Shown piece after piece: positions 21,816 to 30,589 of a stretch of DNA of 64,000 nt (position 1 is its first letter; every line of letters starts with the position of its first letter). The translations under genes and the position numbers were made by a program. The stretch lies in the NCBI RefSeq assembly GCF_003334335.1, contig NZ_QOWQ01000015.1. One strand, 5' to 3'. Source of the DNA: Escherichia coli (GTDB lineage: Bacteria; Pseudomonadota; Gammaproteobacteria; Enterobacterales; Enterobacteriaceae). A model generated the notes under the pieces. That model did no database searches. It was not told the DNA's origin and was given only the letters and a program-made list of their open reading frames with translations.

Positions 21816-24828
<3,013 letters not shown>

Positions 24829-26587: not shown

Positions 26588-27618
26588 TTCGCCATGCCGA
26601 TGCCGACGATGTTAGCGGCGACAATAATCACCACACAACCGAGGCTCAACACCGTTACCGGACGGCGTCCTGCATTGTACCACTCTTTCAGCACCAGCCC
26701 GACGATACCGCCGCACAATACATAGAAACTCATATGCAGCATCCAACTGATGTAGTCATACTGCGCCGGAATGCGGGCGTGGCCCCAGGCATAGAAAAAG
26801 AATTGCAGATACCACATCAACCCGCCCAGTGTCGAGAGTAACACATTGTGAATGATCAGCGATTTTGCCAGCGAGAAGTCGGCTTTTAGCGACAAATCCT
26901 TCACTTTTGCCAGACGAATAAAACAGAAACCGAGGTTAATGATCGCGCCGCCGCCCATGATGACAACATAGCTTGGCAGAGCGACATACAGTGGATCGAC
27001 GCCAAGTGCGGCAGCGGCTTCATGCATCGGTTTTGCGGCGTTCATCGCAAAGGACATCCCGGCAGAGAAAATGCCGCACATCACCGCCAGCACCAGCCCT
27101 TTTTTCAGATTGAACTCTTCGGCTTTAATGCCCATCTTGCGCTCTTTCAACTGCCCGGCGCGAGTTACAATCCCTACGCCAATCAGCGCCACCAGAACGC
27201 CGAGCAACGTCATGCGTCCGCCTTCGGTGCTAATCAACACATCGAAATTGCCGTTGATAATTGGCGTCATCAGCGTACCGACAATCAACGTAATGCCAAT
27301 GGCGATGCCAATTCCCATCGACATGCCGAGATAACGCATGGTCAGGCCGTAGTTGATATTACCGATCCCCCACATAGCGCCGAACAGAAAAACAGGCAGT
27401 AGCGTAGAGAGACTAAACGAGCTGTAATACGCCCAGAAATTCGGTAGTAACAGGGCGCTGATGGCCCACGGCAGAATAATCCACGAAACAATCCCACCGA
27501 CTGACCACATGGTTTCCCATGACCATTTTTTTACTTTTTTGAACGGAGCGTAAAAACAGGCTGCACTGGCCGCGCCGATCAAATGCCAAAATATCCCCAT
27601 CGTAATCGCGTTACTCAT
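26584..27618 (-). CDS. rhaT: L-rhamnose:proton symporter
   Basis: ORF track, 344 aa polytopic membrane protein; its stop overlaps the rhaR stop (convergent 4-nt overlap). Confidence 0.95.
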
Positions 27619-27809
27619 CTTCTTATCCTCATCATTTTTCGTCGCGTCACATCTCCGACGAGATGAGTGTAAAAATCGTGCTGTCGATTAACCTTTCGCC
27701 TGTTGCCGCCGTTGTCGATTTACTGGCAATCACGGCATTAAGTGGGTGATTTGCTTCACATCTCGGGCATTTTCCTGCAAAACCATACCCTTACGAAAAG
27801 TACGGCATT

Positions 27810-27831
27810 GATAATCATTTTCAATATCATT
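27810..27831. promoter_or_regulatory. Fur box in the sodA promoter
   Basis: gataatcattttcaatatcatt, a good match to the Fur consensus, about 70 bp upstream of the sodA start. Confidence 0.7.
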
Positions 27832-27902
27832 TAATTAACTATAATGAACCAACTGCTTACGCGGCATTAACAATCGGCCGCCCGACAATACTGGAGATGA
27901 AT

Positions 27903-28523
27903 ATGAGCTATACCCTGCCATCCCTGCCGTATGCTTACGATGCCCTGGAACCGCACTTCGATAAGCAGACCATGGAAATCCACCACACCAAACACCATCA
28001 GACCTACGTAAACAACGCCAACGCGGCGCTGGAAAGCCTGCCAGAATTTGCCAACCTGCCGGTTGAAGAGCTGATCACCAAACTGGACCAGCTGCCAGCA
28101 GACAAGAAAACCGTACTGCGCAACAACGCTGGCGGTCACGCTAACCACAGCCTGTTCTGGAAAGGTCTGAAAAAAGGCACCACCCTGCAGGGTGACCTGA
28201 AAGCGGCTATCGAACGTGACTTCGGCTCCGTTGATAACTTCAAAGCAGAATTTGAAAAAGCGGCAGCTTCCCGCTTTGGTTCCGGCTGGGCATGGCTGGT
28301 GCTGAAAGGCGATAAACTGGCGGTGGTTTCTACTGCTAACCAGGATTCTCCGCTGATGGGTGAAGCTATTTCTGGCGCTTCCGGCTTCCCGATTATGGGC
28401 CTGGATGTGTGGGAACATGCTTACTACCTGAAATTCCAGAACCGCCGTCCGGACTACATTAAAGAGTTCTGGAACGTGGTGAACTGGGACGAAGCAGCGG
28501 CACGTTTTGCGGCGAAAAAATAA
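27903..28523 (+). CDS. sodA: Manganese superoxide dismutase
   Basis: ORF track 27897..28523; [32 protein letters not shown]…; metal ligands and DVWEHAYY motif. Confidence 0.97.
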
Positions 28524-28578
28524 TCATTTGCCGCCTGCTGCAATGAGGCGTATAGGCCGCATATCAGCTTAAAAAATG

Positions 28579-28607
28579 AACCATCGCCAACGGCGGTGGT
28601 TTTTTTG
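28579..28607 (+). terminator. Rho-independent terminator of sodA
   Basis: ccatcgcc-aacg-ggcggtgg hairpin followed by TTTTTTT. Confidence 0.8.
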
Positions 28608-28642
28608 TGATCAATTCCAAAATAAAAACAATGATCCGATAA

Positions 28643-28662
28643 AAATAAAACAGCGTTTCAAT
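28643..28662. promoter_or_regulatory. KdgR operator upstream of kdgT
   Basis: aataaaacagcgtttcaatt matches the KdgR palindromic consensus (AAAACA…TGTTTCA-like half-sites). Confidence 0.6.
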
Positions 28663-28782
28663 TGATGTGGTTTTGATCACTTTTATTGATTAAATGAATG
28701 TCTATCTTCGTTTCCATCAACACTGATGCTCCATTGAGGAATTACGCATCAGCCCTTAAAAATATGCCGACAGGTGATGGAA

Positions 28783-29766: not shown

Positions 29767-29914
29767 ACCTGCTTCCTTAATCCCCACAGCCGGATGAACT
29801 AACGTTCGTCCGGTTTGCTATTGAGTTCCTGCCTGGATACTTACCGCGAAAACAGCACGCCTGACATAAAATAAATATGGTCTAATGGGGAAATTTCTCG
29901 TGGAGAGGGAACAG

Positions 29915-30589
29915 ATGCGATATCCGGTTGATGTATACACAGGCAAGATTCAGGCTTATCCCGAAGGCAAACCCAGCGCAATTGCTAAAATCCAGGTTGA
30001 TGGTGAGTTGATGCTGACGGAGCTGGGGCTGGAAGGTGACGAGCAGGCGGAGAAAAAGGTTCACGGCGGGCCAGACAGAGCGCTGTGTCATTATCCTCGT
30101 GAGCATTATCTCTACTGGGCGCGGGAATTTCCGGAACAGGCGGAGTTGTTTGTTGCGCCTGCGTTTGGTGAAAACCTCTCAACCGACGGCCTGACGGAAA
30201 GTAATGTTTATATGGGCGATATTTTCCGCTGGGGAGAGGCATTAATTCAGGTCAGCCAGCCGCGCTCGCCTTGCTATAAACTCAATTACCATTTTGATAT
30301 CAGCGATATAGCGCAGTTGATGCAAAACACAGGTAAGGTGGGGTGGTTGTATAGCGTGATAGCGCCAGGGAAAGTGTCTGCGGACGCGCCGCTGGAGTTG
30401 GTTTCCCGTGTCAGCGATGTGACCGTGCAGGAGGCTGCCGCCATCGCATGGCATATGCCGTTTGATGACGATCAATATCACCGTTTACTCTCCGCTGCCG
30501 GGTTATCGAAAAGCTGGACGCGGACGATGCAAAAGCGCCGACTGAGCGGCAAGATCGAAGATTTTTCCCGCCGGTTGTGGGGAAAATAA
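29915..30589 (+). CDS. yiiM: MOSC-domain protein (molybdenum-cofactor sulfurase C-terminal-like; N-hydroxylated base analogue detoxification)
   Basis: ORF track 29885..30589; start at MRYPVDVYTGKIQ… (224 aa). Confidence 0.88.
   Translation: MRYPVDVYTGKIQAYPEGKPSAIAKIQVDGELMLTELGLEGDEQAEKKVHGGPDRALCHYPREHYLYWAREFPEQAELFVAPAFGENLSTDGLTESNVYMGDIFRWGEALIQVSQPRSPCYKLNYHFDISDIAQLMQNTGKVGWLYSVIAPGKVSADAPLELVSRVSDVTVQEAAAIAWHMPFDDDQYHRLLSAAGLSKSWTRTMQKRRLSGKIEDFSRRLWGK

Follow-up and report, generated by a model that had tools for sequence, protein, structure and literature searches.

The rhaT–sodA intergenic region of Escherichia coli: a sodA promoter with stacked regulatory sites, a divergent putative RhaS/CRP-dependent rhaT promoter and a conserved sodA leader

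The sodA promoter of Escherichia coli K-12 (sodAp) is a much-studied multi-input promoter. Compan and Touati and Tardat and Touati, both in 1993, reportedly described it as a promoter of 'six global regulators', and the title of the latter work is said to concern competition between Fur and ArcA. Here we analyze the rhaT–sodA intergenic region of an E. coli contig (NZ_QOWQ01000015.1, assembly GCF_003334335.1) within a stretch of 64,000 nucleotides, hereafter the window, to which all positions refer. The region carries the K-12 sodAp sequence base for base, and the Fur footprint, the start site and the list of regulators carry over to it. Our scans add two points to the K-12 record: FNR has neither a recognizable box nor a chromatin immunoprecipitation (ChIP) peak at this promoter, and the ArcA box fits a modern 18-bp matrix well despite negative ArcA ChIP.

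Other described systems resemble parts of the region. Fur-repressed promoters with arrays of overlapping GATAAT repeats (fepA-fes, cir, ryhB and others) have, like sodA, a cluster of predicted Fur sites over the −35 hexamer and the spacer. Unlike these iron-uptake-type targets, sodA encodes an oxidative-stress enzyme, and its operator appears to be shared with ArcA, SoxS and IHF. Class II Mar/Sox/Rob promoters such as micF place a forward box over a poor −35 hexamer, about 38 bp upstream of the start, as sodA does, but the sodA box is a far weaker match and shares bases with the Fur operator. The RNase III-processed leaders of pnp, gadE and adhE have in common with that of sodA a structured element, a mapped cut (+28 in sodA) and stabilization of the mRNA by RNase III, whereas the intramolecular stem of sodA is only 5-6 bp long. 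The rhaBAD promoter, which lies in the same window (approximately 24542-24680), has the same order and spacing of elements as the rhaT promoter, with different half-site sequences.

An initial annotation, made from the sequence alone, had assigned positions 27619-27902 to the rhaT–sodA spacer, and open reading frame (ORF) boundaries and identity to K-12 MG1655 bear this out. The interval is exactly the 284-bp intergenic region, with two divergent promoters. On its left, a 344-amino-acid minus-strand rhaT ORF has the end of its start codon at 27618; on its right, the sodA ATG (27903-27905) opens a product that begins MSYTLP. Around the spacer, 601 bp are 100% identical, with zero mismatches, to positions 4100400-4101000 of the MG1655 genome (NC_000913.3), where rhaT and sodA are annotated. 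Of 5426 complete E. coli genomes, a megablast search with 27400-28100 recovered the stretch in 5425, again annotated as rhaT and sodA. Since the spacer is identical to that of K-12, published K-12 data apply to it directly. NC_000913.2 coordinates were converted to window positions by subtracting 4098833 and adding 27903, and the offset of 1977 between versions 2 and 3 of the record was checked with the FNR site upstream of katG.

We conclude that the spacer very probably combines a sigma-70 sodA promoter with stacked regulators in its right-hand ~120 bp, a RhaS/CRP rhaT promoter on the left, and control through the sodA leader. The locus is already known; apart from the finer points of leader conservation, each of its elements has been documented before for this very sequence. 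The identity to K-12, the sequence matches with their statistics and the conservation come from the present analysis; published work supplies the Fur footprint, the ChIP data, the transcription start and the position cut by RNase III. Matrices were built from published ChIP site lists where possible (115 boxes for ArcA, 63 sites for FNR, 87 sites for SoxS), while Fur was scored by consensus counts and a published information-theory score rather than by a data-derived matrix. For conservation, a degenerate pattern of the SodA N-terminus identified 120 loci in Enterobacterales contigs, one genome per species. The 118 upstream regions used are those of 117 of these loci plus the window's own sequence, and 51 non-Escherichia genus-level representatives were stacked on the TATAAT hexamer.

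The strongest element is the Fur operator (Table 1). The string quoted as a Fur box in the initial annotation, gataatcattttcaatatcatt, lies at 27810-27831; the box is real, correctly placed and far beyond chance. On the minus strand, 27810-27828 matches 16 of the 19 positions of the Fur consensus GATAATGATAATCATTATC, and the overlapping 27804-27822 matches 15. The 7-1-7 form is matched at 13 of 14 positions at 27809-27823. In both forms these are the best of approximately 128,000 positions in the window. It contains a single match with three mismatches or fewer, against 0.01 expected from 100 dinucleotide shuffles. Four matches of at least 14/19 fall within the 284 bp, where dinucleotide shuffling predicts 0.03 and only 1 of 500 shuffles reached four. 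By these tests the region belongs to the Fur-operator class. The published DNase footprint of Fur (NC_000913.2 4098726-4098780, window 27796-27850) covers the box, and the same study predicted three overlapping Fur sites with a cluster center at 4098746 (27816) and 23.3 bits, fifth in its table of strong predicted Fur clusters genome-wide (Chen et al., PMC2189734). Loss of fur in Salmonella derepresses sodA more than 9-fold (PMC3212961).

The promoter DNA is AT-rich (43% G+C in the spacer against 52% in the window), and several other AT-rich motifs also score in it, as would be the case if the Fur-box resemblance were a non-functional by-product of base composition. Yet composition-matched shuffles almost never reproduce the matches, Fur has been footprinted on this DNA, and sodA responds to loss of fur in Salmonella. 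Moreover, different families of Enterobacterales carry the box letter for letter, and its distance to the −10 hexamer is fixed. Among the 118 upstream regions, GATATTGAAAATGATTATC is unchanged in 50 and the 16/19 score is found in 53, at a constant 21 bp ahead of TATAAT; genera with the identical sequence include Escherichia, Salmonella, Citrobacter, Enterobacter, Kluyvera, Hafnia, Serratia, Rahnella and Yersinia. We therefore give the compositional explanation practically no credence and retain a functional Fur operator.

A promoter scan found one sigma-70-like promoter on the plus strand of the region. Its activity depends on oxygen: the sigma-70 peak at 4098789 (27859) in ChIP with sequencing (ChIP-seq) is 516.8 aerobically versus 2.3 anaerobically (PMC3688515, Table S2), and sodA mRNA is 13.9-fold higher aerobically (Table S12 of the same study). 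The Fur box covers the −35 hexamer and most of the spacer between the hexamers, ending within 9 bp of the −10 hexamer, and the arrangement therefore has the classical geometry of RNA polymerase occlusion. Fe2+-Fur bound to the overlapping GATAAT-type repeats (27804-27831) would cover the −35 hexamer and block RNA polymerase when iron is plentiful.

Across the 51 genera, a block from approximately 27801 to 27864 is nearly invariant, and identity drops to 10-50% upstream of approximately 27784 (columns 27765-27783). Between the two lies a moderately conserved block (27784-27795, approximately −66 to −55 of sodA) that reads ATAACC(T/A)(T/C)A(T/C) in most genera, CATACCCTTACG in E. coli and TTATAACCTTATAA in many Enterobacteriaceae.

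Loci of the Erwiniaceae (among them Pantoea, Erwinia and Tatumella) have lost the 3' half of the Fur box (GGCATTGATAACCCTTTTC, 12-13/19). They retain GGCATTGATAA, TTTAACTATAAT, the −10 region and the conserved box of the leader. That GGCATTGATAA and TTTAACTATAAT outlast the Fur box is expected if the same bases also serve SoxS, IHF and ArcA. Loss of half the Fur box suggests weaker or rewired iron control of sodA transcription in this family.

Downstream of the −35 hexamer, the ArcA box scores 14.9 bits, within the range of the 115 published boxes behind the matrix (minimum 9.7, median 16.3; Park et al.). It ranks second among 127,966 positions in the window, and its segment is almost invariant across the 51 genera, so that by sequence tests the region belongs to the ArcA-box class. 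The reading of this box as a working site has points against it. Its use in vivo is said to rest on older footprint and genetic work. Moreover, Park et al. found no ArcA peak at sodA during anaerobic glucose fermentation, either by ChIP-seq or by ChIP with microarrays (ChIP-chip), and explained this by Fur outcompeting ArcA at sodA. The box lies within the Fur footprint and the two repressors therefore compete for overlapping DNA, consistent with the published Fur–ArcA competition and with this explanation. We propose that phosphorylated ArcA would bind the predicted box, which extends across the spacer into the first bases of the −10 hexamer, and that Fur or ArcA, either alone, could shut the promoter anaerobically.

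Matches of 8/9 to the IHF core WATCAANNNNTTR occur five times in the region, against 0.49 expected and in none of 500 shuffles; no match is 9/9. A published ChIP-chip region for IHF, 4098427-4098897 (window 27497-27967), covers the locus (Myers et al., PMC3688515, Table S4). IHF may thus bind somewhere in the AT-rich sodA promoter DNA, and any of the five cores may be the one used; the best conserved is a minus-strand 13-mer. In the same data set, the IHF-enriched region (anaerobic) and an H-NS-enriched region (aerobic, 4098375-4098938) each span the whole spacer; anaerobically, H-NS enrichment is displaced to 4098855-4099269, within the coding sequence of sodA.

Beyond Fur, the literature lists Fnr, ArcA, IHF and SoxRS as regulators of sodA (PMC3212961), and the initial annotation had named Fur, ArcA, FNR, IHF and SoxRS/MarA as inputs. 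For FNR, the scans were negative. With the matrix from 63 ChIP-supported sites (Myers et al.), the best position in the region reaches 5.8 bits against a training minimum of 11.9, and no position in the region reaches 8/10 of TTGAT-N4-ATCAA. The same matrix recovers the known site upstream of katG in the window. Furthermore, sodA is missing from the list of ChIP-seq peaks for FNR, the predicted sites, the peaks unmasked in an hns/stpA mutant and the Δfnr differential-expression table (PMC3688515). Since both a box and a ChIP peak are absent, nothing here points to a direct FNR site.

FNR could still repress sodA directly through a cryptic, poor site over the Fur box and −35 hexamer, for example TTGATAATCATTTT at 27808-27821. 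The listing of fnr as a regulator and an excess of matches of at least 7/10 to TTGAT-N4-ATCAA (16 observed, 4.4 expected) would agree with this, and Fur occupancy could mask FNR in ChIP as proposed for ArcA. We consider it quite improbable given the scores, the recovery of the katG site and the absence of sodA from all four FNR data sets, and because an indirect route has been published in which FNR activates the small RNA FnrS, which represses sodA (PMC3212961). The FNR input is probably indirect, and the genetic effect of FNR would most likely run via FnrS and other anaerobic repressors. Against this, the predicted pairing of FnrS with sodA is unsupported: the windowed duplex (−16.5 kcal/mol) is worse than 50 of 60 random segments. 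When full-length FnrS or RyhB was paired with the leader, the predicted duplexes spanned whole molecules, were unrealistic and did not outdo random ones. Elsewhere in the window, a perfect FNR-type palindrome (TTGATGACGATCAA, 30462-30475, 15.98 bits, the best in the window) lies inside an ORF (29885-30589) downstream of kdgT.

For SoxS, MarA and Rob, the sequence test failed and the positional test passed, and the box is too degenerate for scanning. Relative to the marbox consensus AYnGCACnnWnnRYYAAAYn, the candidate at 27802-27821 matches 11 of 14 positions. Two such matches occur in the region against 0.82 expected, and 93 of 500 shuffles do as well. In the matrix from 87 Salmonella SoxS ChIP-seq sites, the core of the candidate scores −5.9 bits against a training minimum of 4.25. 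The candidate is nonetheless supported by position, orientation and conservation. It is in forward orientation, centers at approximately −38 and overlaps the poor −35 hexamer TTTTCA, the geometry of class II promoters, in which the center of the box lies 30-42 bp upstream of the start (PMC10268841). Its segment GGCATTGATAA hardly varies among genera, including those in which the Fur box decays.

Published data add to this support. The MarA affinity used for sodA is weak, 2000 nM versus 50 nM for micF (PMC2787020), and a SoxS ChIP-seq peak lies upstream of Salmonella sodA, which is also flagged as a target of E. coli SoxS in ChIP with exonuclease digestion (ChIP-exo). The MEME motif under the Salmonella peak sits elsewhere, further upstream and on the other strand, and this, like the two failed scans, weighs against the candidate. 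We propose that SoxS, and also MarA and Rob, could activate from this weak box in a class II arrangement, sharing bases with the upstream end of the Fur operator. An upstream class I marbox at 27767-27781 was rejected. It is the best marbox-matrix hit of the region (5.1 bits) and was considered as a counterpart of the Salmonella MEME site, but it has the opposite orientation, lies in non-homologous DNA, is unconserved and ranks 297 in the window. IscR is also said in the literature to regulate sodA, and scans of the region with approximate type 1 and type 2 IscR consensus sequences found nothing above background.

Of the inputs first proposed, Fur and ArcA are thus significant in the scans and IHF-like cores are enriched, while no FNR site was found and the SoxS/MarA box, present only in degenerate form, does not rise above chance. 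Since the FNR input comes without any box, the integration of five regulators is partly indirect.

The left ~140 bp of the spacer is of a different nature. Its sites, between 27666 and 27760, are for CRP and RhaS and point toward rhaT. CRP cores of the grade found here occur three times in 64 kb, and another of them occupies the equivalent position of the rhaBAD promoter (24650-24665). Read toward rhaT, 27770→27655 is colinear with rhaBAD 24680→24560, with an alignment score of 43 versus 25.4±5.0 for shuffled sequences (z 3.5, 1 in 300). Both share an order of CRP core, TTGCC-containing distal element, AAGGT proximal element and TTTTTA(C/G)ACT. The left segment thus has the layout of a RhaS/CRP-dependent rha promoter, a CRP core and two RhaS half-sites. 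Alignment of the putative rhaT −10 hexamer to that of rhaBAD would place the CRP site near −93, as in rhaBAD. One RhaS and one CRP element have been described for PrhaT (PMC9429829). The exact half-sites are putative; they come from one pairwise alignment, which counts against their assignment. We infer that the rhaT promoter would be rhamnose-inducible and activated by RhaS and CRP.

In Citrobacter and Enterobacter, the CRP and distal-element bases (GGCAAT...TTAAG) are retained. In Escherichia albertii, the CRP/RhaS part is degraded, with GATGATTTGGCGCATA replacing GGTGATTTGCTTCACA, but promoter and leader of sodA have stayed intact, as would fit a decaying rhamnose transport promoter in this species. 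In Salmonella, the upstream DNA is unrelated and the sodA promoter unchanged. These comparisons bear on the idea that all 284 bp, including the CRP/RhaS segment, act on sodA. The two promoters are only ~190 bp apart, and as the IHF and H-NS regions span the entire spacer, architectural coupling is conceivable. We nevertheless hold such a role to be very unlikely: conservation of the sodA side ends near 27784, the sodA part persists in E. albertii and Salmonella where the left part is degraded or unrelated, and the CRP/RhaS layout mirrors rhaBAD and is oriented to rhaT. With the CRP/RhaS part assigned to rhaT, the label 'sodA control region' given in the initial annotation fits only the right-hand ~40% of the interval (approximately 27784-27902), and about half of the interval serves the neighboring gene.

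Table 1. Features of the rhaT–sodA intergenic region (positions in the window).
Feature	Position	Strand	Basis or detail
Putative rhaT −10 hexamer TACACT	27666-27671	−	Aligns with rhaBAD −10 TAGACT
Candidate proximal RhaS half-site CGGCAACAGGCGAAAGG	27692-27708	−	Putative, from rhaT/rhaBAD alignment
Candidate distal RhaS half-site TTAATGCCGTGATTGCC	27725-27741	−	Putative; 11/17 identical to rhaBAD distal region
CRP site GGTGATTTGCTTCACA	27745-27760		9/10 of core TGTGA-N6-TCACA; serves rhaT
IHF-core-like 13-mer TATCAATGCCGTA, best conserved	27801-27813	−	8/9 to WATCAANNNNTTR
Further IHF-like 13-mer	27728-27740	+	8/9
Further IHF-like 13-mer	27739-27751	−	8/9
Further IHF-like 13-mer	27825-27837	+	8/9
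Further IHF-like 13-mer	27847-27859	+	8/9
Candidate class II marbox/soxbox ACGGCATTGATAATCATTTT for SoxS/MarA/Rob	27802-27821	+	Overlaps −35 hexamer
Fur operator	27804-27831		Overlapping 19-mers 27804-27822 and 27810-27828; 7-1-7 core 27809-27823
sodA −35 hexamer TTTTCA	27818-27823	+	Promoter scan, 10/12 match, 16-bp spacer
ArcA box TAGTTAATTAAATGATAT	27824-27841	−	Two direct repeats 11 bp apart; spans spacer and first two −10 bases
sodA −10 hexamer TATAAT	27840-27845	+	Promoter scan; in 118/118 orthologous upstream regions
sodA transcription start	27850	+	EcoCyc 4,098,780 quoted in PMC2787020; 53-nt leader
Conserved leader box CTGCTTACGCGG	27853-27864	+	+4 to +15 (CUGCUUACGCGG); CUGCUUAC is +4 to +11
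Leader hairpin GCGGC/GCCGC	27861-27865/27877-27881	+	Minimum free energy fold; conserved element 27853-27881 (+4 to +32)
Ribosome-binding region	27887-27905	+	AAUACUGGAG 27887-27896; Shine-Dalgarno GGAG 27893-27896; ATG 27903-27905

The sodA leader is the remaining part of the region. Its first ~30 nt are more conserved in Enterobacterales than most of the promoter DNA upstream of −50. Among the first 15 transcribed bases, CTGCTTACGCGG stands out, most of its positions being at least 90% identical in the 51 genera. A second promoter, or one for an alternative sigma factor, was considered behind this box and rejected, since no acceptable −35/−10 pair was seen by eye. The box is followed by a predicted hairpin, with which it overlaps. 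In an alignment of 42 sequences, pairing in the helix amounts to 93.6%, and both sides have changed in four of its six pairs; none of 500 shuffles reaches its covariation score, and controls slid along the alignment are clearly worse. The loop varies from ~10 to 22 nt, and the arms co-vary in several genera. Hafnia, Tatumella and Xenorhabdus have differing stem sequences that still pair. Box and hairpin are retained in genera ranging from Escherichia to Pantoea, Yersinia and Dickeya, also in those with a decayed Fur box. Loci of Brenneria, Dickeya and Symbiopectobacterium have leaders expanded to 130-150 nt by an insertion between the hairpin and the ribosome-binding site; promoter, +4 to +15 box and hairpin are retained in them.

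RNase III acts on this leader. Lejars and Hajnsdorf reported a cut of the sodA 5' untranslated region at +28 in vitro, which coincides with the one site that an earlier targetome study had found in vivo (PMC9032294). With +1 at 27850, this is 27877, the first base of the 3' arm of the hairpin. The stability of sodA mRNA is reduced in rnc mutants, and most of RNase III's effect on sodA is transcriptional and indirect according to the same authors (PMC9032294). A role of the hairpin in processing has points against it: with 5-6 bp the stem is a short one for RNase III to act on, and folding of the entire leader is no better than that of shuffles (z 0.17). The support for the hairpin is hence moderate, given a short, mostly invariant stem and a leader of ordinary overall stability. 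An Rfam scan of 27500-28750 with E-values up to 10 found no credible family in the spacer.

Small RNA control may add to this. The stretch AAUACUGGAG, which includes GGAG, is complementary to CUUCCAGUAUU of RyhB. The windowed RyhB duplex at 27888-27909 (−18.6 kcal/mol) is better than 57 of 60 random segments, which is weak support, and RyhB control of sodA has been stated (PMC3951346). The 53-nt leader would thus add post-transcriptional control, by RNase III cleavage of the hairpin and by the complementarity of the ribosome-binding region to RyhB.

The conserved block 27853-27881 might also be a DNA operator rather than an RNA hairpin, such as a second ArcA site in phase (TTGTTAATGCCGCGTAAG on the minus strand, 27856-27873) or the site of another factor. 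The ArcA matrix gives 8.2 bits here, with a perfect TTGTTAA repeat at 27867-27873, and multi-repeat ArcA sites are common (Park et al.). Moreover, the stem and part of the loop are conserved in sequence, which limits covariation. However, 8.2 bits is below all 115 training boxes, and the most conserved bases, those of CTGCTTACGCGG, differ from the bases of the ArcA repeat. The variable loop between arms that stay complementary, as in Hafnia, Tatumella and Xenorhabdus, fits RNA rather than a protein site of fixed spacing, and the RNase III cut maps to the 3' arm. We regard an operator as unlikely. As for the RNA, we can offer only tentatively the view that the box and hairpin form a constrained element with a regulatory role of its own, uncharacterized as such; it is possible, and we would not call it probable.

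The locus matters mainly as a positive control. The recognition by eye of a much-studied multi-input promoter was correct, and the scans proposed with it behave as expected: they recover Fur and ArcA and miss the SoxS input that genetics has established, its box being too degenerate. The conserved first 30 nt of the leader are the only feature that might repay further work. If the leader element is real, it could be a docking or processing signal, for RNase III with or without a trans-acting RNA partner, or a site for Hfq and a small RNA, and it would set the stability or translation of sodA mRNA independently of the promoter.

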